Assembly (NCBI RefSeq): GCF_006345805.1
Contig: NC_043020.1
Span: 27,652,001 to 27,716,000 of the forward strand
Source: Octopus sinensis
Taxonomy: Eukaryota
DNA length: 64,000 bases
Reading direction: 5' to 3'
In this document: piece by piece, positions 8,596-62,290 of the stretch
Numbering within the stretch: position 1 is the stretch's first letter
How the letters are laid out: each line of letters begins with the position of its first letter
Position numbers and translations under genes: made by a program
The notes under the pieces: model-generated
Databases searched by the model: none
The model's input: only the letters and a program-made list of their open reading frames with translations
Told to the model about the DNA's origin: nothing

Positions 8596-9192
8596 CTAGC
8601 AGTATCGCCCGGCGTTGCTCGGGTTTGTAAGGGAAATAACTATATAAGCATTTTTAGAGAGTTATAGCCAAAAAATAGCAAAAAATGCATTAAAAATGGA
8701 AAAAAAGATGATGGTAAATGTTTTTAAATCGTTGACTCATCGTAGACATTTTTAGAGAGTTACTTCCCTTATATAATAGCGAAAAAAATGCATTAAAATG
8801 GAAAAAATGATGGTAATTTTTTTTTAAATCGTAGACTCATCGTAGACATTTTTAGACAGTTACTTCCCTTATATAATAGCGAAAAAATGCATTAAAATGG
8901 AAAAAAAATGATGGTAAATTTTTTTTTAATCGTTGACTCATCGTAGACATTTTTAGAGAGTTACTTCCTTTATATAATAGCGAAAAAAATGCATTAAAGT
9001 GGAAAAAAATGATGGTAATTTTTTTTTTAATCGTAGACTCATCGTAGACGCACGCTAATACCCAGAAGGGCTCGATATGAATCACGACTATAAGATACCC
9101 GCTTTTGGTTACACTGCACCGCAAAATGTGGGAGTAGTTAGGAATCTAAATCGTAGGAGACAGACACACAACGTCACTTTTATATATAAAGA
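8596..9192 (-). mobile_element. Non-autonomous Helitron with four internal repeats of about 100 bp
   Basis: The minus strand starts TCTTTATATATAAAA and ends CCCGAGCAACGCCGGG hairpin...CTAG. It is inserted at A|T with no TSD and is absent from the paralogous site near 14440. Confidence 0.85.
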
Positions 9193-9632
9193 TTATAAGC
9201 ACATAGAGAGACGATGTATATGATAACGAAGATGAGAAATGATTTCATGTACGCTGTTTTTATAGCTCTACGTTTTATCTCTCTGTTCAGGTTAACGGAA
9301 ACAGACGATGAAAGGAACACACCAACTTCCGGTGACTCTGTATTATAGGATATCGCAATGTAAAGGATGCATGTGAAAACCTGAAAGCAGCTTCTAACAT
9401 ACAGGCGCCAAACATGAGAATATCAATAAAAACTGAAATATATTTATACTAAGATAGATAAATATACAGAAACAAAGAAAAAACTCCCCCCCCACACACA
9501 CACAAACAGGAACAAATATCTACGCATACACACTCATATAAAGAAAAGAAGAAAAACAGTTCCAATTTCGCATTTGATTAACGAAAATCAAAGGAGAGTA
9601 AGAATTAGAGGTTATCTGAATATCAGTCAACA

Positions 9633-11126
9633 ATGGCGAAGTTTAGCAGCTGTTTCGGTCGATATTGTTCATACCGATGGAAGTTATGCTATATATGTTC
9701 GATTGCGATATTTCTCCTGCAGACGATGAGGGTCGATTTAAGTATGGCCTTTGTTTGTATGTTGAAGACACCAAATCGCACGGCTAACGACGCCAACAAC
9801 ACTCAGAGTACCCAACAGTGTTCTGGCCTTGATACTCACAATCAGTCCTCACACGAAACATACAATGGAGATATCACCTGGAGCAACAATCTTCAAGCGA
9901 ATGTATTAGCCGGTTATTACTACGGTTACATTCTAACAAATATTCTTGGAGGCATTTTAGCAGATAAATATGGCGCTAAAAATATTCTAGGCTTTTCTCT
10001 CGTTTCAGCATCGGCTCTGACTTTGCTCTACCCGAGTTTATCTCGAATAAGTGGTTACTTTACACTTGTCTTAAGGATATTAACTGGGTTAGTATCTGGC
10101 CCGATGTTTCCAACGGTGCAATCTTTATTTGGTCGGTGGGCTCCACCTCTTGAAAGTAGCACATTGATTGGTCTTGTATGTTCTGGTCAACTCATAGGTA
10201 GTATTGTATGTTATTCTATATCGGGTTTCCTCTGTGTGTATGGATTTGACAACGGGTGGGGTTCTATATTTTATATATTTGGGGGAATGTCACTGTTGTT
10301 CAGTTCTGCTTGGTTCTATTTTGTTTACGATCGTCCAGAGCTCCATCCGTCTCTTGGTCAAGAAGAACGCTCGTACTTGAATAAAACTGTAAGGTGTAAA
10401 AGTAGAGTTAAAAACATACCCTGGAAAAACATTTGGAGTTCGTCTGCTGTTTGGGCCATCGTTGTTGCCCACACTTGCTATAACTGGACTGATCTTACCC
10501 TTACCTTATTACTACCACTCTACATGAAAGAAGCCTTAAACGTCGAAACAGAATCAAATGGTTTAATGTCATCTGCTCCTTGGATAGGGCAAGCCATTTC
10601 CTTGCCCTTGTTCGGAAGACTTGCAGATTTTATACGCTCAAAGAACTGTCTGTCAACCCGTTCGATCCGAGTGCTTTTCCAAACTGTGTGTTTCGTTTTC
10701 TCGGCGATTCTATTCATTTCTGTAGGTTTTCTGAAATGTGACCAAGTCCCATTGGCTGGTTTTCTCTTTCTTTTTTCTGGTGTCATCTGGTCTCTCTATA
10801 TAGGCGGTTTTAATGTGAACCACGTTGACATTGCTCCGAAATACGCTGGTGTATTGTATGGTATTACGAATACATTTAGTTCCCTACCAGGATTTGTGGC
10901 TCCAATAACAGCTAGAATACTTACACCGAATGGAACGCAAAAAGAATGGCAAATTGTGTTAGCTTTATGTGCAGGGTTTTCTGTGTTAGGGGCAATAGTA
11001 TATGCGATTATGGCGAAAGGGGAAATTCAAGATTGGGCCAAGTACGAAGATAGTTCTATAAATGAAAGAGAATCTCTGAAGTTAAAAGAGGGAAGAGCAA
11101 TTGACGGAGATTGTGAAACGGTTTAG
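9633..11126 (+). CDS. SLC17A5-like: SLC17/sialin-like MFS anion transporter, copy 1 (497 aa, intronless CDS)
   Basis: Uninterrupted ORF with SLC17 motifs: TM1 RVDLSMA, YYYGY, GGILADKYG, GRWAPPLE, GWGSIFYIFG, PWK..WAI, LPLYMKE, NHVDIAPKYAG, EIQDWA. Confidence 0.95.
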   Translation: MAKFSSCFGRYCSYRWKLCYICSIAIFLLQTMRVDLSMAFVCMLKTPNRTANDANNTQSTQQCSGLDTHNQSSHETYNGDITWSNNLQANVLAGYYYGYILTNILGGILADKYGAKNILGFSLVSASALTLLYPSLSRISGYFTLVLRILTGLVSGPMFPTVQSLFGRWAPPLESSTLIGLVCSGQLIGSIVCYSISGFLCVYGFDNGWGSIFYIFGGMSLLFSSAWFYFVYDRPELHPSLGQEERSYLNKTVRCKSRVKNIPWKNIWSSSAVWAIVVAHTCYNWTDLTLTLLLPLYMKEALNVETESNGLMSSAPWIGQAISLPLFGRLADFIRSKNCLSTRSIRVLFQTVCFVFSAILFISVGFLKCDQVPLAGFLFLFSGVIWSLYIGGFNVNHVDIAPKYAGVLYGITNTFSSLPGFVAPITARILTPNGTQKEWQIVLALCAGFSVLGAIVYAIMAKGEIQDWAKYEDSSINERESLKLKEGRAIDGDCETV

Positions 11127-15574: not shown

Positions 15575-17061
15575 ATGGCGAAGTTTAGCAGCTGTTTCGG
15601 TCGATACTGTTCATACCGATGGAAGTTATGTTATATATGTTCGATTGCGATATTTCTCCTGCAGACGATGAGGGTCGATTTAAGTATGGCCTTTGTTTGT
15701 ATGTTGAAGACACCAAATCGCACGGCTAACGACGCCAACAGCACTCAGAGTACCCAACAGTGTTCTGGCCTTGATACTCACAATCAGTCCTCACACGAAA
15801 CATACAATGGAGAGATCACCTGGAGCAACAATCTTCAAGCGAATGTATTAGCCGGTTATTACTACGGTTACACTCTAACAAATATTCTTGGAGGCATTTT
15901 AGCAGACAAATATGGCGCTAAAAATATTCTAGGCTTTTCTCTCGTTTCAGCATCGGCTCTGACTTTGCTCTACCCGAGTTTATCTCGAATAAGTGGTTAC
16001 TTGCCTTAAGGATATTAACTGGGTTAGTATCTGGCCCGATGTTTCCATCGGTGCAATCTTTATTTGGTCGCTGGGCTCCACCTTTTGAAGATAGCGCATT
16101 GCTTGGTCTTGTATTTTCTGGTCAACTCATAGGTAGTATTGTATGTTATTCTATATCGGGTTTCCTCTGTGTGTATGGATTTGACAATGGGTGGGGTTCT
16201 ATATTTTATATATTTGGGGGAATGTCACTGTTGTTCAGTTCTGCTTGGTTCTATTTTGTCTATGATCGTCCAGAGCTCCATCCGTCTCTTGGTCAAGAAG
16301 AAAGCGCGTACTTGAATAAAACTGTAAGGTGTAAAAGTAGAGTTAAAAACATACCCTGGAAAAACATATGGAGTTCTTCTGCTGTTTGGGCCATCGTTGT
16401 TGCCCACACTTGCTATAACTGGACTGATCTTACCCTTACCTTATTACTACCACTCTACATGAAAGAAGCCTTGAACGTCGAAACAGAATCAAATGGTTTA
16501 ATGTCATCTGCTCCTTGGATAGGGCAAGCCATTTCCATGCCCTTGTTCGGAAGACTTGCAGATTTTATACGCTCAAAAGACTGTCTGTCAACTCGTTCGA
16601 TCCGAGTGCTTTTCCAAACTGTGTGTTTCGTTTTCTCGGCGATTCTATTCATTTCTGTAGGTTTTCTGAAATGTGACCAAGTCCCATTGGCTGGTTTTCT
16701 CTTTCTTTTTTCTGGTGTCATCTGGTCTCTCTATATAGGCGGTTTTAATGTGAACCACGTTGACATTGCTCCGAAATACGCTGGTGTATTGTATGGTATT
16801 ACGAATACATTTAGTTCCCTACCAGGATTTGTGGCTCCAATAACAGCTAGAATACTTACACCGAATGGAACGCAAAAAGAATGGCAAATTGTGTTAGCTT
16901 TATGTGCAGGGTTTTCTGTGTTAGGGGCAATAGTATATGCGATTATGGCGAAAGGGGAAATTCAAGATTGGGCCAAGTACGAAGATAGTTCTATAAATGA
17001 AAGAGAATCTCTGAATTTGAAAGAGAGAAGAGCAATTGACGGAGATTGTGAAACGGTTTAG
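15575..17061 (+). pseudogene. SLC17A5-like: SLC17/sialin-like copy 2, frameshifted near-identical duplicate of copy 1
   Basis: 1487 nt versus 1494 nt for copy 1. A 7-nt deletion near 16000 (ggttactttacacttg to ggttacttg) gives a stop at 16009, and the rest of the protein continues in ORF 16039-17061. Confidence 0.85.
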
Positions 17062-21646: not shown

Positions 21647-23128
21647 ATGTCGAAGTTTAACGAATTTATCAGCCATTATGGTTCATGTCGATGGCGGCTG
21701 TGCTATGTCAGCTTTTTCGCTTTGCTTCTCATGCAGACTTTACGTGTAGACCTTAGTATGTCGTTAGTTTGCATGTTAAAAACACCCAATCGTACAATTG
21801 ATGAAGTCAACCTTACTCGAAATAACGAACACTGTTCTCGTTTAGACAATCGTACATCAAATGGAGAGGATTTTGAAGGAGAGTTCGAATGGAGCAACAT
21901 TCTGCAATCAAACATGCTGGCTGGATACTTTTATGGATACACAATTACTAACCTTCTTGGCGGTGTATTGGCTGACAAATATGGTGGAAAGAGAGTTATG
22001 GGGGCTTCCATATTCTCAGCTTCTCTCCTGACCCTTCTTCACCCAAGTCTAACTCGAATAAGTGGTTATTTTACTCTCGTATTAAGGACACTTACAGGTC
22101 TGGTTTCAGGGCCCATGTTTCCTGCAGTGCAGTCTTTGTGGGGTCGATGGGCTCCACCTAGTGAAAGTAGTACTTTGATAGGGATTTCATTTGCCGGTCA
22201 GATATTAGGTAGCATTGTAGGTCTGTCAGTTTCCGGTTTCCTTTGCGTTTATGGCTTTGATAATGGATGGGGTTCTATATTTTATATATTTGGTGGATTA
22301 TCGTTGGTGTTTAGCTTTGTGTGGATTTATGTTGTTTATGATAATCCAAACGTTCATCCAACTATAAGCGAAAAAGAACGTTCCTATTTAAACAAAACAA
22401 TAAAATGTAAAAGTAAAGTGAAGAACGTGCCTTGGAAAAGCATCATGTCTTCTACAGCCGTTTGGGCCATCATCATGGCGCATACACTAATTAACTGGAC
22501 CGTTATTTCTTTTCAAGTGATTCTTCCTTTGTATATGAAGGAAGCGTTAAATATTGATACGAAATCAAACGGTTTAATGTCTTCAGCTCCGTTTATTGGG
22601 CAAATAATTGCTATACCATTTTGTGGAAGATTCGCAGACTTCTTGCGTTCAAACAATTATCTTTCAACACGATCCGTTCGAGTTCTTTTCCAGTCAGTTT
22701 CTTACATTGGTTCAGCGTCTCTGATTACCGTAATCGGGTTCCTTAATTGCAATCACACGACATTGGCCGGAATTCTTTTCTTTATTACTGGAACCAGCTT
22801 AACATTCTATTATGCAGGCCTGAGTGTAAATCATGTTGACATTGCTCCTATATACGCTGGTATATTGTACGGAATTACAAATACTTTCGCATCGTTACCT
22901 GGCTTTGTGGTTCCTTTAACTACAAAAGCACTGACACCAAATGGAACACAGCAAGAATGGCAAGTAGTATTATCATTGTGTGCCATATTTTCTGTGTGTG
23001 GGACAATAATCTATGCGATATTCGCGAGAGGGGATGTACAAGATTGGGCTAAATCTGATGAAAAATCGATTAAAAATTCTTCGAATGAGGAAGAATCTAT
23101 ATATTTAAATGAGGTAAAACAAGGATAA
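21647..23128 (+). CDS. SLC17A5-like: SLC17/sialin-like transporter, copy 3 (493 aa)
   Basis: Full ORF with the same SLC17 motifs. Confidence 0.95.
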   Translation: MSKFNEFISHYGSCRWRLCYVSFFALLLMQTLRVDLSMSLVCMLKTPNRTIDEVNLTRNNEHCSRLDNRTSNGEDFEGEFEWSNILQSNMLAGYFYGYTITNLLGGVLADKYGGKRVMGASIFSASLLTLLHPSLTRISGYFTLVLRTLTGLVSGPMFPAVQSLWGRWAPPSESSTLIGISFAGQILGSIVGLSVSGFLCVYGFDNGWGSIFYIFGGLSLVFSFVWIYVVYDNPNVHPTISEKERSYLNKTIKCKSKVKNVPWKSIMSSTAVWAIIMAHTLINWTVISFQVILPLYMKEALNIDTKSNGLMSSAPFIGQIIAIPFCGRFADFLRSNNYLSTRSVRVLFQSVSYIGSASLITVIGFLNCNHTTLAGILFFITGTSLTFYYAGLSVNHVDIAPIYAGILYGITNTFASLPGFVVPLTTKALTPNGTQQEWQVVLSLCAIFSVCGTIIYAIFARGDVQDWAKSDEKSIKNSSNEEESIYLNEVKQG

Positions 23129-27445: not shown

Positions 27446-28787
27446 ATATATGTGTATATATATATATGTATATATATGTATGCATAAGTATATATATATG
27501 CATATATAATATATATATATAATATATACATATGATATACACATAATATATATATATATATATATATACATACATACATATATATACAAATGTCGTTATG
27601 TATATATACTATTCACCAATATGTAGGCCGTATTACATATAACATTAATCATCTTCATATACCACAAACACACGTCTGTTACGTTGAACTGTTGTTTATT
27701 TTTGCCTTTGTATCGCATGTTTTTATTGTTCGAATCCCAATATTCTTGTTGTTAATTTGAATAACAAATTAATCTTAATCATACGTACCAGCTGGTCTTC
27801 AGAATTTCGATTAAAATAATTGATGAGTATGAATAATTATACGTATATTAGGTTATTGCAATTATCTCACTTTCGAAGTTGTATAGTGGTTTGCTCTTTA
27901 CAAAATAGAACTCCCCCTTCCTTCACTTCAATCGTGATCAATGAAGCAGGGATGTGATATAAACTATGTGTGAACCGGCTCTTTCGGAATTTCTATGGTA
28001 GCTAAAGAAACGTATTTAGGCCTATTAGGACTTCCTAACGAATTTTAGACTAAAAAGATTTACCAGAACTTTCGCATAGATGACTGAGAGATTAAAGATT
28101 TGGGGGGAATAACATCGAATGATTAGTGAATTTTATGACTGGGAGGCGAAGAGATTTTAGTTCGTCCCGTAAAAATGTTCTTTTATGTAGATTAGTAAAA
28201 AGAGGAAAATATATCACCCAAGTTTTCATAAGGTGACGGGAAGGATATGATATCCACAGACCTGAGGGCTGCATATCTGCAACGTAGTGGACCCTTTACA
28301 GTCAACTGAAAAGCTGAACAGATAAATTAAGTGACAATATAAAGAAGTATGTAGATCGATGGATAAAATATTGTAAATTTTGTAAAGTACGGAATTTGTA
28401 TTTTGTCATGTTTATATAAATAAAAACAAGTTAATAATTTTCTCTAAGAAAACCATAAAATTATTTATTAATAATGCTACACATTTTTTTTTCTTTTAAA
28501 ATTACAGATTGACCAGCCCACAAAAAACAAAATAACTTCAAGTCTTGAAAATTTTCTGCTATAATACTACCCAATCGACAAAACTTACCGAGAATATATT
28601 TTCTATTATCTGAATGTCGTGATGTTGCACGCAGTCACCCGTCATTTTATGGTTCAAATCTTTTGAGACAATTACGGAATGTATGATATTGATAGTGTAT
28701 GAGATTTTGTTGTGTATAAGCCTTACTGAAGGAGAAGCGAAAAAACTTAAAAAAACTCCGAGAATACAGTTTAAACGCGCAGAGAAA

Positions 28788-30266
28788 ATGTCGAAGTTGA
28801 ACGAATTTATCAGCCATTATGGTTCATGTCGATGGCGGCTGTGCTTTGCCAGCTTTTTCGCTTTGCTTCTCATGCAGACTTTACGTGTAGACCTTAGTAT
28901 GTCGTTAGTTTGCATGTTAAAAACACCCAATCGTACAATTGATGAAGTCGACCTTACTCGAAATAACGAACACTGTTCTCGTTTAGACAATCGTACATCA
29001 AATGGAGAGGATTTTGAAGGAGAGTTCGAATGGAGCAACATTCTGCAATCAAACATGCTGGCTGGATACTTTTATGGATACATTATTACTAACCTTCTTG
29101 GCGGTGTATTAGCTGACAAATATGGTGGAAAGAGAGTTATGGGGGCTTCCATATTCTCAGCTTCCCTCCTGGCCATTCTTCACCCAAGTCTAACACGAAT
29201 AAGTGGTTATTTTACTCTTGTATTAAGGATTCTTACAGGGTTGGTCTCAGGTCCCATGTGCCCTTGTGTCCAATCCTTATGGGGGAGGTGGGCTCCACCT
29301 AGTGAAAGTAGTATTTTGATAGGGTTTTCAATGGGAGGTTTAGTAGTCGGGAGCGTTGTAGGACTGTCAACGTCCGGTTTCCTTTGCGTTTATGGCTTTG
29401 ATAATGGATGGGGTTCTATATTTTATGTATTTGGTGGATTATCGATGGTGTTTAGCTTTGTGTGGATTTATGTTGTTTATGATAATCCAAACGTCCATCC
29501 TACTATCAGCGAAAAAGAACGTTCCTACTTAAACAAAACAATAACATGTAAAAGTAAAGTTAAGAACGTGCCTTGGAAAAGCATCATGACTTCTACAGCC
29601 GTTTGGGCCATCATTATGGCGCATACATTTATCAACTGGACTACTTTTTCTTTTCAAGTGATTCTGCCTTTGTATATGAAAGAAGCGTTAAATATTGATA
29701 CGAAATCAAACGGTTTAATGTCTTCAGCTCCGTTTATTGGACAAATGATTGCTATACCATTTTGTGGAAGATTCGCAGACTTCTTGCGTTCAAACAATTA
29801 TCTTTCAACACGATCCGTTCGAGTTCTTTTCCAGTCAGTTTCTTACATTGGTTCAGCGTCTCTGATTATCGTAATCGGATTCCTTAATTGCAACCACACG
29901 ACATTGGCCGGAATTCTTTTCTTTTTCACCGGTGCCAGCCTAACTTTCTATGTTGGGGGCTTCATTGTGAATCATGTTGACATCGCTCCTAAATACGCTG
30001 GTATATTGTACGGAATTACAAATACTTTCGGGGCGTTGCCTGGCTTTCTGGCTCCTTTAACCACAAGAGCATTGACACCGAATGGAACACGGCAAGAATG
30101 GCAGATAGCTTTATCATTGTGTGCCATATTTTCTGTGTGTGGGACAATAATTTATGCGATTTTTGCGCGTGGGGATGTACAAGATTGGGCTAAATCTGAT
30201 GAAAAATCGATTAAAAATTCTTCAAACGAGGAAGAAACTATAAATCTAAAGGAGGTGATACAATAA
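28788..30266 (+). CDS. SLC17A5-like: SLC17/sialin-like transporter, copy 4 (492 aa from the conserved Met)
   Basis: ORF 28683-30266. Start placed at MSKLNEF by alignment with the paralogs. Confidence 0.93.
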   Translation: MSKLNEFISHYGSCRWRLCFASFFALLLMQTLRVDLSMSLVCMLKTPNRTIDEVDLTRNNEHCSRLDNRTSNGEDFEGEFEWSNILQSNMLAGYFYGYIITNLLGGVLADKYGGKRVMGASIFSASLLAILHPSLTRISGYFTLVLRILTGLVSGPMCPCVQSLWGRWAPPSESSILIGFSMGGLVVGSVVGLSTSGFLCVYGFDNGWGSIFYVFGGLSMVFSFVWIYVVYDNPNVHPTISEKERSYLNKTITCKSKVKNVPWKSIMTSTAVWAIIMAHTFINWTTFSFQVILPLYMKEALNIDTKSNGLMSSAPFIGQMIAIPFCGRFADFLRSNNYLSTRSVRVLFQSVSYIGSASLIIVIGFLNCNHTTLAGILFFFTGASLTFYVGGFIVNHVDIAPKYAGILYGITNTFGALPGFLAPLTTRALTPNGTRQEWQIALSLCAIFSVCGTIIYAIFARGDVQDWAKSDEKSIKNSSNEEETINLKEVIQ

Positions 30267-35751: not shown

Positions 35752-37233
35752 ATGTCGAAGTTGAACGAATTTATCAGCCATTATTGTTCATGTCGATGGC
35801 GGCTGTGCTATGTCAGCTTTTTCGCTTTGCTTCTCATGCAGACTTTACGTGTAGACCTTAGTATGTCGTTAGTTTGCATGTTAAAAACACCCAATCGTAC
35901 AATTGATGAAGTCAACCTTACTCGAAATAACGAACACTGTTCTCGTTCAGACAATCGCACATCAAATGGAGAGGATTTTGAAGGAGAGTTCGAATGGAGC
36001 AACATTCTGCAATCAAACATGCTGGCTGGATACTTTTATGGATACACAATTACTAACCTTCTTGGCGGTGTATTAGCTGACAAATATGGTGGAAAGAGAG
36101 TTATGGGGGCTTCCATATTCTCAGCTTCCCTCCTGGCCATTCTTCACCCAAGTCTAACACGAATAAGTGGTTATTTCACTCTTGTATTGAGGATACTTAC
36201 AGGTCTGGTCTCAGCACCCATGCTACCCGCTGTCCAGTCCCTATGGGGGAGGTGGGCCCCACCAAGAGAAAGTAGTGTTTTGATAGGGATTACAATTGCC
36301 GGTCAAACAGTCGGTAGTATTGTCGGTCTGTCAGCTTCCGGTTTCCTTTGTGTTTATGGCTTTGATAATGGATGGGGTTCTATATTTTATATATTTGGTG
36401 GATTATCGTTGGTGTTTAGCTTTGTGTGGATTTATGTTGTTTATGATAATCCAAACGTCCATCCAACTATCAGCGAAAAAGAACGTTCCTACTTAAACAA
36501 AACAATAACATGTAAAAGTAAAGTGAAGAACGTGCCTTGGAAAAGCATCATGTCTTCTACAGCCGTTTGGGCCATCATTATGGGGCATACACTTATTAGC
36601 TGGACCGCTATTTCTTTTCAAGTGACTCTGCCTTTGTATATGAAAGAAGCGTTAAATATTGATACGAAATCAAACGGTTTAATGTCTTCAGCTCCGTTTA
36701 TTGGGCAAATGATCGCCATACCATTTTGTGGAAGGTTTGCAGACTTCTTGCGTTCAAACAATTATCTTTCAACACGATCCGTTCGAGTTCTTTTCCAGTC
36801 AGTTTCTTACATTGGTTCAGCGTCTCTGATTATCGTAATCGGATTCCTTAATTGCAACCAAACAACATTGGCCGGAATTCTTTTCTTTTTCGCCGGTGCC
36901 AGCCTAACTTTCTATGTTGGGGGTTTCGTTGTGAATCATGTTGACATTGCTCCTAAATACGCTGGTATATTGTTCGGAATTACAAATACCTTCGCATCGT
37001 TACCTGCCTTTCTGGCTCCTTTAACCACAAAATCACTAACACCAAACGGAACACGACAAGAATGGCAGATAGCTTTATCATTGTGTGCCATATCGTCTGT
37101 GTGTGGGACAATATTCTATGCAATATTCGCGAGAGGGGATGTACAAGATTGGGCTAAATCTGATGAAATATCGATTAAAAATTCTTCAAACGAGGAAGAA
37201 ACTATAAAACTAAATGAGGAAAAGCAAAGATAG
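35752..37233 (+). CDS. SLC17A5-like: SLC17/sialin-like transporter, copy 5 (493 aa)
   Basis: Full ORF with SLC17 motifs. Confidence 0.95.
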   Translation: MSKLNEFISHYCSCRWRLCYVSFFALLLMQTLRVDLSMSLVCMLKTPNRTIDEVNLTRNNEHCSRSDNRTSNGEDFEGEFEWSNILQSNMLAGYFYGYTITNLLGGVLADKYGGKRVMGASIFSASLLAILHPSLTRISGYFTLVLRILTGLVSAPMLPAVQSLWGRWAPPRESSVLIGITIAGQTVGSIVGLSASGFLCVYGFDNGWGSIFYIFGGLSLVFSFVWIYVVYDNPNVHPTISEKERSYLNKTITCKSKVKNVPWKSIMSSTAVWAIIMGHTLISWTAISFQVTLPLYMKEALNIDTKSNGLMSSAPFIGQMIAIPFCGRFADFLRSNNYLSTRSVRVLFQSVSYIGSASLIIVIGFLNCNQTTLAGILFFFAGASLTFYVGGFVVNHVDIAPKYAGILFGITNTFASLPAFLAPLTTKSLTPNGTRQEWQIALSLCAISSVCGTIFYAIFARGDVQDWAKSDEISIKNSSNEEETIKLNEEKQR

Positions 37234-44450: not shown

Positions 44451-45923
44451 ATGTCGAAGTTTAACGAATTTATCAGCCATTATGGTTCATGTCGATGGCG
44501 GCTGTGTTATGTCAGCTTTTTCGCTTTGCTTCTCATGCAGACTTTACGTGTAGACCTTAGTATGTCGTTAGTTTGCATGTTAAAAACACCCAATCGTACA
44601 ATTGATGAAGTCGACCTTACTCGAAATAACGAACACTGTTCTCGTTCAGACAATCGCACATCAAATGGAGAGGATTTTGAAGGAGAGTTCGAATGGGGCA
44701 ATACTCTACAATCAAACATGTTAGCTGGATACTATTATGGATACATTATTACTAACCTTCTTGGCGGTGTATTAGCAGACAAATATGGTGGAAAGAGAGT
44801 TATGGGGGCTTCCATATTCTCGGCTTCTCTCCTGACCATTCTTCACCCAAGTCTAACACGAATAAGTGGTTATTTTACTCTCGTATTAAGGATACTTACA
44901 GGTCTGGTTTCAGGGCCCATGTGCCCTGCTGTCTTATCTCTGTGGGGACGGTGGGCTCCGCCATTAGAAAACAGCGTGTTGGTTGCAGTCTCTTTTTCTG
45001 GTTTATTGATCGGTAGCATTCTGGGTTTGTCAATTTCCGGTTTCCTTTGCGTTTATGGCTTTGACAATGGATGGGGTTCTATATTCTATATATTTGGTGG
45101 AATATCGTTGGTGTTTAGTTGTGTGTGGTTTTATGTCATTTATGATACCCCAGATGTCCATCCGACTATCAGCGACAAAGAACGTTCCTATTTAAACAAA
45201 ACTATAATACACAAGGGCCAAGTGAAGAGCGTTCCATGGAAGAGAATCATGTGTACTCCCGCTGTTTGGGCTCTTATAATTGCTCACACATTCTACAATT
45301 GGACGATTATTTCTTTCCAGCTGCTTCTGCCTTTGTATATGAAAGAAGCATTAAATATCGATACGAAATCAAATGGTTTAATGTCTTCTGCTCCGTTCAT
45401 TGGACAGTTCGCGGCTGTGCAATTCTGTGGAAGGTTTGCAGATATTTTGCGTTCAAAGAATTATCTTTCAACGCGTTCTGTACGAGTTCTCTTCCAGAGT
45501 GTTTGTTTCCTTGGCTCAGCATCACTGCTGATTGCCATAGGATTCCTTGACTGTGAACAAACAACCCTGGCCGGCATTCTGTTCCTCTTCACGGGTATCT
45601 GCTTAGCATTTTACATTGGCGGCTTCAATGTCAACCACGTGGACATTGCTCCTAGATACGCTGGTGTATTGATCGGCATTACCAACACTTTTGGTTCATT
45701 ACCCGGATTCTTGGCTCCATTATCATCCAAAGCTCTTACACCAAATGGGACACAAGAAGAATGGCAAATTGTCTTAGCTTTGTGTGCGGCACTTTCTGTA
45801 TTCGGAACGATAATGTTCGCGATATTGGCAAGTGGAGATGTACAGGAATGGGCAAAATCTCAAGAAATGCCAAATAGTTCTTCTAAAGCGGAAGAATCAG
45901 AGAATCTAAGGCAGTCTGCATAA
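44451..45923 (+). CDS. SLC17A5-like: SLC17/sialin-like transporter, copy 6 (490 aa)
   Basis: Full ORF with SLC17 motifs. Confidence 0.95.
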   Translation: MSKFNEFISHYGSCRWRLCYVSFFALLLMQTLRVDLSMSLVCMLKTPNRTIDEVDLTRNNEHCSRSDNRTSNGEDFEGEFEWGNTLQSNMLAGYYYGYIITNLLGGVLADKYGGKRVMGASIFSASLLTILHPSLTRISGYFTLVLRILTGLVSGPMCPAVLSLWGRWAPPLENSVLVAVSFSGLLIGSILGLSISGFLCVYGFDNGWGSIFYIFGGISLVFSCVWFYVIYDTPDVHPTISDKERSYLNKTIIHKGQVKSVPWKRIMCTPAVWALIIAHTFYNWTIISFQLLLPLYMKEALNIDTKSNGLMSSAPFIGQFAAVQFCGRFADILRSKNYLSTRSVRVLFQSVCFLGSASLLIAIGFLDCEQTTLAGILFLFTGICLAFYIGGFNVNHVDIAPRYAGVLIGITNTFGSLPGFLAPLSSKALTPNGTQEEWQIVLALCAALSVFGTIMFAILASGDVQEWAKSQEMPNSSSKAEESENLRQSA

Positions 45924-52290: not shown

Positions 52291-55026
52291 TTGACAGGGA
52301 ATGACAGGGACCAACAGACAGACATAAAACCCAACACTAATATCAACAACACATATACCAGAAACAGGAACAATGAATATATCACTAGCGATGATAGTAA
52401 TAATGGCAATGGTAGGAATAAAGGTAATAACAATAATAGTGGTAGTAGTAGTGGTGATGGTAACAGTAGAAGTAGTAATGAGGATAGTAGTGATAGTTGT
52501 GGTGGTAATAGGAATAATAGTAGTAGTGGTAATGGTGATAATAATAATAGGAAGGCTGATGTTGGAAACAGTAACGATAATGAAGATAACCCTAGAAAGA
52601 CCATTGACATGTATACCCATCCCTTTGACACTCAATTCTTCGACGTATGCGATAAAACTTACTGCATGAACCGAATTTATCCAACAACATTACCCTTCAA
52701 CAAAAGAGTATACATCCCAAGACGTACTAATGACCATGACCATATGGAAGCACAGTTCACTATAGCTAGGACCAAACTTAGACAGATTTTAGGATTATAC
52801 ATTAAGAGACAGAGACAGAATAAGACAGATGCCCAACAACTCGGGATTAAACCTGCATGTGGCCTACAGAAGCTCATTCAGCGCACGAGGAACGGAGAGG
52901 TGATATGCCTTCCCACGGATAAGTCCGGCAGGATGTCAATAGACAGCTTACCGAACTACATCCAGGCAATGCAACCTCATATCGCCAATACAAAAATAAC
53001 AACTGTACAGGCGCATGAGGAGAGAGAAAAGGTCCTCAATGCCCACATGATGATATGGACAATTGTTGTGGGACCCCAGAAACGTACTGCAAAGAATTTC
53101 CAAGCCTGGAACAATGATATCCCGGTACTGTATGGACTTCGCAAGGACCATAAAGTTTTTACTGACCCTATAGCAGGACCACCAACAAGACCAGTCTGTG
53201 GAGCGAATATCGCTAGCAATTACAGAATCTCCTACTTCCTCTCAATGATCATACGCCCTATAATCAGGATGTCACCTGATGTGTGTGACAGCACAGAAGA
53301 TCTCCTAAGCAGGATCAGTGACTGTAACAAAACTTGTGACTTGACAGGATGTATAGTAGGTAGCATGGATGTGGTATCCCTATACCCATCGATTGACGTG
53401 GATTTTGCAGTGGAGAAGTGCGTGGAGATGATCAACGAGAGCCAGGTGGAGTTCTGTAATATCAACACAGAAGAACTGGGCCTCCTACTTAGACTGACAT
53501 ATAATAATGAATACTTAGATAAACATAATCTTAGTAGTTTCTGCCCCAGTAGATGTTTAAGAGGTAGACCGCCTACAATTACTTCTATGGCTAGGAAGAC
53601 ACATATAGAAAGATGGCGCGGATGGACCAGAGCCATACGGAGCCCCGCAAATGTCCATCAGGTAAAGAAAATGATCGCACATGCACTAGGAGCTAGTATA
53701 AGAGTTACCCTAAAAGGCCACACATTTAAATTTAATAATAAAATATATGCCCAGGACGAGGGGGCAGCCATCGGTGTTAGTATCGCTGGTGATGTGGCCA
53801 ACATTTTCATGGTATGGTGGGACAGAAGGCTTAAAGAACGCCTACTGCAGAAATCCATACTCGTAAACATGTACTCTTGCTATGTTGATGATATCAACAT
53901 AGTGGTAAAGGCACCCCCACAAGAGAGTAATGTTGATATAGTAATAGAAACTAATACTATGGAGATCATCCAGCAAATAGCTAACTCCATCCACCAGAGT
54001 ATTAAAGTCACAATAGACTACCCCACTAAACACCCCAACCATAGACTACCAGTACTAGACACTGAACTCTGGCTAGAAATTGTGAAAAATAAAACCCAAA
54101 TCCTTCATTCATACTATGCAAAACCTATGGCCTCAAAATACCTGATCCACCGGAACTCAGCCATTGCGGGCAATGCCAAATTCAATATTTTGATGGCAGA
54201 CCTCGTCAGAATAATGAGAAATGTGTCACGCATGTGCGAGCCTACAGAATTAAAGAGACACATACAGTATTTCATTCACCGCATGCAGTTCTCAGGTTAC
54301 AGCCATAAAGAAAGGATCAGAGTATACAAAGGAGCCATGAAGAAATTTGATAATATATTATGTAATGATAGGAATGGTATTTGCCCACTCTATAGGAACA
54401 AGTCATGGAACACTATAGAAAGGACAAAAAAAAAAAAAAAGAAAATAGGGAAGGCCAACTCCTGGTACGATAGCCATAAATACCAGAGTGTCATGTTCGT
54501 TGACACCACCCTTGGAGGTGAACTGGCGTACCGCTTTAGAAGGACCCTAGATAAACTTAAACTAAGAATTAAGGTTGTTGAAAAGCCAGGCAACCCTATC
54601 AAATCTATAATTGGTAGAACCTATCCTTTTAGTAGAACCCTCTGTACGGATAACTATTGCACCGTATGTAGATTTAGCCCACAAACAAACTGTAAAGCCA
54701 GAAATGTAGTCTATAGTATAAGATGTATAGAGGGACGATGCAGTAACAAGACAATAACATACGTAGGGGAAACGGCAAGAAGCATAGGAGAGCGGGTGAA
54801 TGTACATTGGAGACAGCTCAAGGAAGGTAAAAGCTCATCGATTCTGTACCAACACGCCGAACAGGAACACGGGGGATCAATCAATAACATAGAGATTAAG
54901 ATATTGTCCACACATAGAACAGATGCAACAATTAGACAAATTACAGAAGCTACACATATAATAGAAAATAAACCTAGCCTGAATAGAAAACTAGAATGGA
55001 GCAATAGCACACACCACAACATATGA
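52291..55026 (+). CDS. Penelope-like element polyprotein: reverse transcriptase, Cys-rich linker and C-terminal GIY-YIG endonuclease
   Basis: Motifs TDKSG, YGLRKDHK, RPV, SMDVVSLYPSI, GAAIG, YVDD, PVLD, KPMAS; CxxxxCxxC linker; NVVYSIRC..YVGET..ERVNVH..EATHI..PSLN. The true start is uncertain (the ORF opens at TTG; first ATG at 52609). Confidence 0.92.
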   Translation: MTGNDRDQQTDIKPNTNINNTYTRNRNNEYITSDDSNNGNGRNKGNNNNSGSSSGDGNSRSSNEDSSDSCGGNRNNSSSGNGDNNNRKADVGNSNDNEDNPRKTIDMYTHPFDTQFFDVCDKTYCMNRIYPTTLPFNKRVYIPRRTNDHDHMEAQFTIARTKLRQILGLYIKRQRQNKTDAQQLGIKPACGLQKLIQRTRNGEVICLPTDKSGRMSIDSLPNYIQAMQPHIANTKITTVQAHEEREKVLNAHMMIWTIVVGPQKRTAKNFQAWNNDIPVLYGLRKDHKVFTDPIAGPPTRPVCGANIASNYRISYFLSMIIRPIIRMSPDVCDSTEDLLSRISDCNKTCDLTGCIVGSMDVVSLYPSIDVDFAVEKCVEMINESQVEFCNINTEELGLLLRLTYNNEYLDKHNLSSFCPSRCLRGRPPTITSMARKTHIERWRGWTRAIRSPANVHQVKKMIAHALGASIRVTLKGHTFKFNNKIYAQDEGAAIGVSIAGDVANIFMVWWDRRLKERLLQKSILVNMYSCYVDDINIVVKAPPQESNVDIVIETNTMEIIQQIANSIHQSIKVTIDYPTKHPNHRLPVLDTELWLEIVKNKTQILHSYYAKPMASKYLIHRNSAIAGNAKFNILMADLVRIMRNVSRMCEPTELKRHIQYFIHRMQFSGYSHKERIRVYKGAMKKFDNILCNDRNGICPLYRNKSWNTIERTKKKKKKIGKANSWYDSHKYQSVMFVDTTLGGELAYRFRRTLDKLKLRIKVVEKPGNPIKSIIGRTYPFSRTLCTDNYCTVCRFSPQTNCKARNVVYSIRCIEGRCSNKTITYVGETARSIGERVNVHWRQLKEGKSSSILYQHAEQEHGGSINNIEIKILSTHRTDATIRQITEATHIIENKPSLNRKLEWSNSTHHNI

Positions 55027-60826: not shown

Positions 60827-62290
60827 ATGTCTCGATTTACGAATTGTATTCAGCGCTATTGCTCGTGTCGATGGAGATTATGCTATATTTGTGCAATAGC
60901 TTCTCTTGTTATGCAAACATTAAGAGTCGATATAAGTATGGCGTTTGTTTGTATGTTGAAAACCCCGAATCGTACGAGCGAAGAAGTTAACGTTACTACA
61001 AACAACCAACATTGTTCCGGATTCGATAACCGTTCAATGATCGAAAACTATGAAGGAGAGTTTGAATGGAGCGACACGTTACAATCGAACATACTGGCTG
61101 GGTACTTCTATGGATATATAGCAACTAATTATTTGGGTGGTTTATTGGCCGATAAATACGGTGCGAAAAGAGTTGTCGGAGGTTCAATATTCTCAGCATC
61201 CATTCTGACCATTCTTCACCCAAGTCTGTCTCGAATTAGTGGTTACTTGACCCTCGTTCTAAGGATATTAACAGGTATGGCATCAGGACCAATATACCCA
61301 GCGTTTCAATCCTTATATGGACGTTGGGCGCCTCCGCAAGAAATTGGTTCGTTGGTTGGGCTTACATTCGCTGGTCTGTATTTAGGTAATATTGTAGGAC
61401 TTTCAATATCAGGTTATCTTTGTCTTTATGGATTTGACAATGGATGGGGTTCTATATTTTATATATTTGGTGGATTATCGTTGGTGTTTAGTTGTGTGTG
61501 GTTTTATATTGTCTACGATACTCCAGATGCCCATCCAACCATTAGCGAAAAAGAACGTTCTTATTTAAACAAAACTATAATAAGTAAAAAAGTGGTGAAA
61601 AATGTACCATGGAGACGACTAATTTCTTCTCCTGCTGTATGGGCCATTAGCATTGGCTGGTTTGCTAAAAGTTGGACTGGTTTGTCTTTCCAGGTGTTGC
61701 TACCCCTTTATATGAAAGAAGCCTTAAACGTTAATACGACCTCTAATGGTTTAATGTCATCTGCTCCTTCGGTTGGACAAATCATTGCACTACCACTGTG
61801 CGGCAAGTTAGCTGATTTTGTACGTTTAAAGAAATACATATCAACTCGTTGTGTTCGCATTTTATTCCAAACCTTTGCGCTGATTGCTTCAGCATGTCTG
61901 TTGATAGTCATAGGATTCCTCAGATGTGACCAAACCATTCTAATAACTATCTTATTGTTTCTCATTGGTATAACTCTATCATTTTCCAGTGGTGGTGTTC
62001 TTGTCAACAACAATGATATTGCTCCAAGTTATGCTGGTATTATATTTGGAATTGCAAATACAATCGCAGCAACCTCGGGAAGTATTTCTCCCTTATCTGC
62101 AAAAGCTCTCACCCCAAACGGTACACAAGAAGAATGGCAGATCGTGTTTGCTTTGTGTGCTGCTATATGTGTTGTTGGTACAATATTATATGCAATATTA
62201 GCAAGAGGAGAAATTCAAGATTGGGCGATTTCGGAAGACCCTGGGCCATCTGTTCCCCTTAATGACATGAACACCAATGAATCGGCTTAA
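60827..62290 (+). CDS. SLC17A5-like: SLC17/sialin-like transporter, copy 7 (487 aa from the conserved Met), most divergent in TM7
   Basis: ORF 60695-62290. Start placed at MSRFTNC by alignment (acaacaATG context, as in copy 1). Confidence 0.93.
   Translation: MSRFTNCIQRYCSCRWRLCYICAIASLVMQTLRVDISMAFVCMLKTPNRTSEEVNVTTNNQHCSGFDNRSMIENYEGEFEWSDTLQSNILAGYFYGYIATNYLGGLLADKYGAKRVVGGSIFSASILTILHPSLSRISGYLTLVLRILTGMASGPIYPAFQSLYGRWAPPQEIGSLVGLTFAGLYLGNIVGLSISGYLCLYGFDNGWGSIFYIFGGLSLVFSCVWFYIVYDTPDAHPTISEKERSYLNKTIISKKVVKNVPWRRLISSPAVWAISIGWFAKSWTGLSFQVLLPLYMKEALNVNTTSNGLMSSAPSVGQIIALPLCGKLADFVRLKKYISTRCVRILFQTFALIASACLLIVIGFLRCDQTILITILLFLIGITLSFSSGGVLVNNNDIAPSYAGIIFGIANTIAATSGSISPLSAKALTPNGTQEEWQIVFALCAAICVVGTILYAILARGEIQDWAISEDPGPSVPLNDMNTNESA

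Follow-up and report, generated by a model that had tools for sequence, protein, structure and literature searches.

The 64-kb window analysed here (the whole stretch of Octopus sinensis DNA presented above) carries an array of seven intronless SLC17 coding regions, all on the + strand, of which six are intact (487–497 aa) and one is frameshifted. The intact members are the SLC17/MFS gene copy 1 (9633..11126, 497 aa, P0001), copy 3 (21647..23128, 493 aa, P0002), copy 4 (28788..30266, 492 aa, P0003; counted from the ATG homologous to that of the other copies, the ORF itself opening at 28683), copy 5 (35752..37233, 493 aa, P0004), copy 6 (44451..45923, 490 aa, P0005) and copy 7 (60827..62290, 487 aa, P0006). 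Copy 6 is near-identical to copies 3–5 over the 5′ third, and the remainder is 13–36% diverged per block. Copy 2 (15575..17061), 97% identical to copy 1, lacks 7 nt near 15998 and is thereby frameshifted directly upstream of TM4; it is either a pseudogene or an assembly error. The remaining coding changes that set it apart from copy 1 are concentrated in TM4–TM5: the core segments hold 7 coding and 1 silent differences, versus 10 and 12 elsewhere. Between copies 6 and 7 lies an 805-aa ORF (52609–55026) with a weak, below-cutoff match to RVT_1 (E 3.5e-4) and a C-terminal stretch that resembles a GIY-YIG nuclease; it is probably a Penelope-like retroelement.

The array members belong to SLC17 (ACS family of the MFS) and share a 12-TM MFS fold nearest to that of sialin and VGLUT. 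Copy 1 matches Pfam MFS_1 (E 1.2e-43) and, in phmmer searches, human sialin (8dwi, E 1.9e-98) and VGLUT2 (E 7e-76). Its AlphaFold model (pLDDT 91, from a 148-row alignment) finds sialin as the best Foldseek match in the PDB (8u3f, TM 0.82/0.93), with VGLUT2 also among the top matches. The closest proteins are Octopus and Argonauta 'sialin-like' paralogues, dozens of which make up the top matches, the best at 88%. Sialins are named among the expanded gene families of octopus in two reviews that cite Albertin et al. 2015 (PMC6110919, PMC6062618). The array is likewise an enlarged octopus family labelled sialin, and the window is presumably part of that expansion; the cluster may already be described in Albertin et al. 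In the literature collection searched, we found no residue-level or functional account of the octopus sialin-like family.

Copy 1 looks to be transcribed and spliced, the runs concerned being RNA by our guess only. RNA-like contigs cover its coding sequence, with no change listed in TM4, and its likely spliced 5′ UTR (9291..9632) follows a pyrimidine-rich AG acceptor at 9289–9290. In three RNA-like runs from three studies, contigs begin at 9288 with a leader of 24 unmatched letters and depth is 0 at 9208–9284; contigs of the run X18 span the 9288 site. Directly upstream of this acceptor, at 8900–9200, lies a high-copy dispersed repeat, where contig depth is very high in each of the four runs. 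Similar acceptors in a pyrimidine-AG context precede copies 1–6 (at 9291, 14538, 21506, 28508, 35510 and 43930), 140–1040 nt upstream of the ATG, the acceptor-to-ATG stretch being ~700 nt longer in copy 2 than in copy 1. Dispersed repeats aside, the homology between copies 1/2 and 5/6 begins only ~110 nt before the acceptor.

These observations make it possible that the copies are whole-CDS cassette exons sharing a 5′ non-coding first exon. The 24 unmatched letters plus CAG plus GTT add up to 30, as expected if a 31-mer assembly graph branches after GTT, and the exon of copy 5 likewise begins with GTT. In RefSeq, the isoform labels X1, X2 and X3 are attached to different O. bimaculoides paralogues, and two such paralogues with consecutive accessions fall into different 90% clusters. 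Since an unspliced intron starting with GTT would yield the same pattern, the shared first exon is a candidate only.

The residues of interest lie in TM4 and at the start of TM5 (copy 1, 10071..10190). The phmmer alignment of copy 1 to human sialin (8dwi) is gap-free over query positions 112–205 (TM3–TM5) at an offset of +20, which confirms the register against a sequence of solved structure and rules out a misregistered motif. By this alignment R148 (codon at 10074) corresponds to sialin R168, T151 (10083) to E171, S155 (10095) to E175, P157 (10101) to V177, Q163 (10119) to H183, S175 (10155) to R195 and T177 to K197, L147 being encoded at 10071. Among the six intact copies, position 171 is Thr in 6/6, 175 is Ser in 6/6, 183 is Gln in five and Leu in one, and 195 is Ser in four, Asn in one and Ile in one; the Pro at the V177 position accompanies the Thr/Ser pair. 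The earlier note had reported that all copies lack both TM4 glutamates, the His and the Arg, and this was borne out: 6/6 intact copies lack all four, and the motif is present in 7/7 copies of the window, in copy 2 in the shifted frame. Extended to the octopod family, 'all copies' is true of the glutamates (0/42 paralogues have E171 and E175) but not of the other two residues, H183 being retained in 8/42 and R/K195 in 7/42. The note was also right that the anion-binding TM1 Arg is kept: R33 (= sialin R57; TM1 segment 9729..9737) is present in 6/6 intact copies, as is the R168 equivalent, the two being found in 32/34 and 42/42 octopod paralogues, respectively. The VGLUT2 sequence that it quoted agrees with a salmon VGLUT2 match, which reads Gln/Glu at the two positions. 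Restoration of the glutamates by A-to-I editing can be rejected, because no A>G change turns ACN or TCN into a Glu codon; the contigs list no difference over 9889–10253.

Residues were counted on a single profile alignment of the retrieved proteins, in which only the rows covering TM4 were scored; this left 42 of 45 octopod paralogues (3 without TM4 coverage), 31 of 32 molluscs and 140 of 145 representatives, and the sets of relatives over-sample the query's own lineage, because they were ranked by likeness to the query. Both glutamates are missing from 31/31 named non-cephalopod molluscs, from 17/22 other named animals and from 97 of the 140 non-cephalopod 50%-cluster representatives, 29 of which keep one and 14 both; as a control, 116/120 matches to an insect sialin keep both. 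The earlier note had itself held that its reading would be refuted if ordinary invertebrate SLC17s commonly carried these substitutions, and that is largely what the counts show. The missing TM4 glutamates are no peculiarity of the octopus array but the rule among its relatives. The statement in PMC9858498 that both glutamates are absolutely conserved across SLC17 is contradicted by these counts and by Gln187 of VGLUT2 (PMC11116495). Our literature search found no paper that tabulates the TM4 glutamates across SLC17.

The other flagged residues are distributed differently. H183 is kept in only 11/31 non-cephalopod molluscs, 14/31 having Gln, and is missing from 54/54 fish proteins that retain both glutamates. 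Loss of R195 is more restricted than the other losses, because R/K195 is kept in 27/31 molluscs and 129/140 representatives. Joint loss of all four residues is seen in 27/42 octopod paralogues, compared with 3/31 molluscs and 8/140 representatives, and the Thr/Ser pair itself is nearly restricted to cephalopods (39/42 octopod paralogues, 2/140 representatives).

Trees were built after removing the trait columns (LG+G4, subsets chosen by us: 98 rows for a quick tree and 55 rows for a bootstrapped, VGLUT-rooted one). The octopod paralogues (support 100/100) have as their sister group a set of cephalopod proteins, among them one from a cuttlefish and one each from Octopus and Argonauta, in which Ser175 and Pro177 are already present and H183 and R195 are kept (5/5). 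All 15 cephalopod rows fall within a 27-row mollusc clade (99/97), itself included in a 33-row lophotrochozoan clade (91/98), and every row of both clades lacks both glutamates. AU tests reject joining the cephalopods with the Glu/Glu sialins (p 0.00016 and 0.00014 for two groupings, named after the first tree had been inspected), and one gastropod has two distinct proteins (P0069, P0148), one devoid of the glutamates and the other with the Glu/Glu pair and a dileucine motif. Together, the trees and this gastropod place the Glu loss before the diversification of molluscs and make 'sialin' a best-hit name for the array. NPT-like rows are placed with vertebrate sialins (support 100/99), so the array is not an NPT1-4 orthologue either. 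By these trees, the array is part of an old glutamate-less lophotrochozoan SLC17 lineage, orthologous to neither sialin nor NPT.

A comparison with named transporters sharpens the picture. Relative to human sialin (SLC17A5; PDB 8dwi, 8u3f, 9ayb), the array is similar in fold, with ~36% identity, and retains R39, R57, Y119, R168, N430 and the gate acids; it differs in having Thr/Ser for E171/E175, in altered H183, R195, K197, Y54 and Q123, in lacking the N-terminal lysosomal dileucine and, by the AU test above, in not being an orthologue. E. coli DgoT and VGLUT2 retain the TM1 Arg and the TM4 Arg, as does the array. At the E171 position DgoT has, by offset, Thr129, the same residue as in the array, and VGLUT2 has Gln; the Glu equivalent to E175 (E133 in DgoT, E191 in VGLUT2) is missing from the array. 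Of the VGLUT residues (SLC17A6-8), E191, H128 and the TM7 R322 are replaced by S155, L92 and Tyr, Ile or Lys at 283. Mammalian NPT1-4 (SLC17A1-4) resemble the array in lacking the TM4 glutamates, but their loss is separate, with Gln/Leu in place of the array's Thr/Ser. Our NPT comparison draws on reptile, bird, marsupial and monotreme matches and published descriptions: the marsupial and monotreme matches lack both glutamates (5/5), most of those from reptiles and birds retain E175 (38/50 NPT-like matches keep one acid), R195 is kept in 45/50 and H183 in 0/50. The reptile and bird proteins (P0165, P0424–P0486) have Gln at the R168 position, mostly together with E175. With these and the fish 'sialin' matches, which retain both glutamates but not H183, TM4 charges prove much more variable across SLC17 than the structural papers suggest.

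What is specific to the octopus and cephalopod genes is an Asp/His pair, the loss of R195/K197, fast change of the pocket amid gene conversion and a hint of the shared 5′ exon described above. Asp at the position of sialin N59 is typical of cephalopods (copy 1, D35, 9735–9737), and the TM3 position of sialin T153 (10029..10031) is His in five intact copies and Tyr in copy 1. The two occur together in 5/6 intact copies, 23/34 octopod paralogues and 3/5 cephalopod sister proteins, and in 0/22 other molluscs, 0/110 representatives, 0/117 insects, 0/54 fish and 0/46 NPT-like proteins; 3/34 octopod paralogues have neither, including the O. bimaculoides counterpart of copy 1 (P0007, Asn/Gln). In sialin, N59 and T153 line the N-domain lumen tunnel that leads to E171 (PMC9858498). 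The pair could either give R148 a new counter-charge or act as a relocated pH site, and since cephalopods gained it in the very tunnel from which the glutamates were lost, the absence of Glu does not exclude pH sensing.

The basic residues at 195 and 197, which in sialin are part of the cytosolic seal (PMC11116495; bioRxiv 10.1101/2022.07.26.501550), are both lost in 35/42 octopod paralogues versus 0/31 other molluscs, and their partner acids stay; gate residues R39, E194, E262, D350, R353 and D416 are retained in 6/6 intact copies. Sixteen pocket sites change at 1.41 times the TM mean in 31 octopod rows, compared with 0.79 in 31 other molluscs and 0.42 in 28 insects, the sites having been taken from the sialin papers after the alignment had been seen and octopod paralogues being set against largely orthologous proteins. 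The octopod rate differs from a matched null (0.77 ± 0.17, p 0.0004); within octopods alone, pocket sites compared with other TM sites give p 0.083. One such site is Asp287 (10491–10493) in the TM7 pocket at sialin F305, which is Asp in 15/31 octopod rows and variable in the others.

The array genes are under purifying selection: in copies 3–5 pN is 0.042–0.047 versus a pS of 0.14–0.18. With pN far below pS, death or decay of the six intact copies can be ruled out. Positive selection on the pocket is not established (pN 0.18–0.23 versus pS 0.11–0.25, on only 8–9 synonymous sites). When copies 3–6 are compared in blocks of 30 codons, codons 1–150 differ by 0–9%, with long identical runs, and codons 151–180 (TM4b–TM5) by 18–30%, the latter at both silent and coding sites. 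This heterogeneity is strong (p < 1e-9 in 6/6 pairs among copies 3–6), and silent-site tests for conversion tracts give p 0.004–0.024 for 6 pairs among these copies, values that are only suggestive alone because they are uncorrected for 15 pairs. The pattern is consistent with gene conversion that homogenises copies 3–6 yet spares the TM4–TM5 pocket segment. At the margin of the diverged segment T151, S155 and P157 do not vary, and position 175 falls within the segment itself.

What, then, might these proteins do? In sialin, E171Q and E175Q each abolish ~95% of transport (PMC9858498), and, as far as the glutamates are concerned, it is therefore reasonable to propose, as the earlier note did, that the array departs from the canonical H+ coupling of sialin. 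H183 is a cytosolic constriction residue predicted to be neutral (PMC9858498), and it and R195 are gate residues rather than proton carriers. Mammalian NPT1-4 are described as plasma-membrane transporters that have no TM4 Glu and are independent of low pH (PMC6532931). Since relatives of the array and mammalian NPT also lack the glutamates, the array likely consists of pH-independent, voltage-driven carriers and not of a new kind of protein; we put at roughly 0.55 the probability that its members are NPT1-4-like carriers of organic anions driven by the membrane potential, each copy likely tuned to a different anion. Such an alternating-access carrier would take an organic anion at R33 with no need for prior protonation of a glutamate, Cl- or the new D35 would supply the lost counter-charge to R148, and the membrane potential would drive transport, probably at the plasma membrane. 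That location is predicted from tails that hold neither [DE]xxxL[LI] nor YxxO motifs in 6/6 intact copies, the N-tail being 14 residues long. The scan is crude: it found the dileucine of the Glu/Glu Babylonia sialin-like protein but missed that of Polyodon sialin, where it returned only a Yxx-hydrophobic motif, which makes the absence of motifs weak evidence.

Several observations count against this voltage-driven reading. D35 and a His at the T153 position could form a new proton site, and sialin double Glu mutants retained some activity in HEK cells (PMC11116495), so other residues can contribute to coupling. Cephalopods might, then, have rebuilt pH sensing or H+ coupling around this pair in the tunnel emptied of glutamates, a reading in keeping with the confinement of the pair to cephalopods and with DgoT, where Asn49, at the same TM1 position as sialin N59, lies in a buried polar pocket and a TM1 Asp relays protons (PMC6532931). 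We regard it as doubtful: the pair is not invariant, copy 1 having Tyr for His and P0007 neither residue, and no Glu remains to release R57. Also at odds with net uniport is DgoT E133Q, in which neutralising the TM4 Glu leaves robust exchange and no net flux (PMC10149257). By analogy, a carrier deprived of a deprotonatable TM4 Glu might be unable to return empty and would swap anion for anion, the more so as R57 and R168 are uncompensated unless paired with D35. An obligate exchanger is nevertheless unlikely, given that NPT1-4 function independently of low pH without the same Glu, that SLC17 includes organic-anion uniporters (PMC11649914) and that an engineered point mutant need not predict the behaviour of a long-evolved lineage.

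The earlier note had further entertained a channel or a non-transporting sensor, and we found nothing that supports either. The features that could be read as those of an anion channel or a chemosensor array are the loss of both N-domain gate charges in most octopod paralogues and in none of the other molluscs, the diversifying pocket residues and a clustering of the genes like that of receptor families. Set against these are a gate network that is otherwise intact, the wild-type behaviour of VGLUT2 R213S (the counterpart of sialin K197; bioRxiv 10.1101/2022.07.26.501550) and short tails devoid of any signalling domain, and carriers of multiple substrates would be equally expected to diversify their pockets, all of which makes such a function very improbable. 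The boldest combination of these elements would have cephalopods re-arming a glutamate-less SLC17 with an Asp/His proton site and octopods expanding it into whole-CDS cassettes on a shared non-coding first exon, each with its own pocket kept distinct against gene conversion, so as to form a repertoire resembling that of receptors, in which alternative splicing would select among pH-gated anion carriers or sensors; we consider this a long shot.

In this study we have found that the absence of the TM4 glutamates is, by itself, an ordinary feature, and the label of the octopus 'sialin' expansion is corrected accordingly. This expansion counts among the cephalopod novelties cited in the literature; its members are not to be taken for lysosomal sialic-acid/H+ symporters, nor should a role as vesicular neurotransmitter carriers be assumed. 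Should the shared first exon prove true, it would be an unusual way of choosing among transporter paralogues. Finally, the family offers a natural series, from the Glu-less mollusc protein through a single-copy cephalopod gene with the Asp/His pair and an intact gate to octopod paralogues without the gate charges, that is well suited to studying how SLC17 proteins switch among H+ symport, allostery and voltage-driven uniport.
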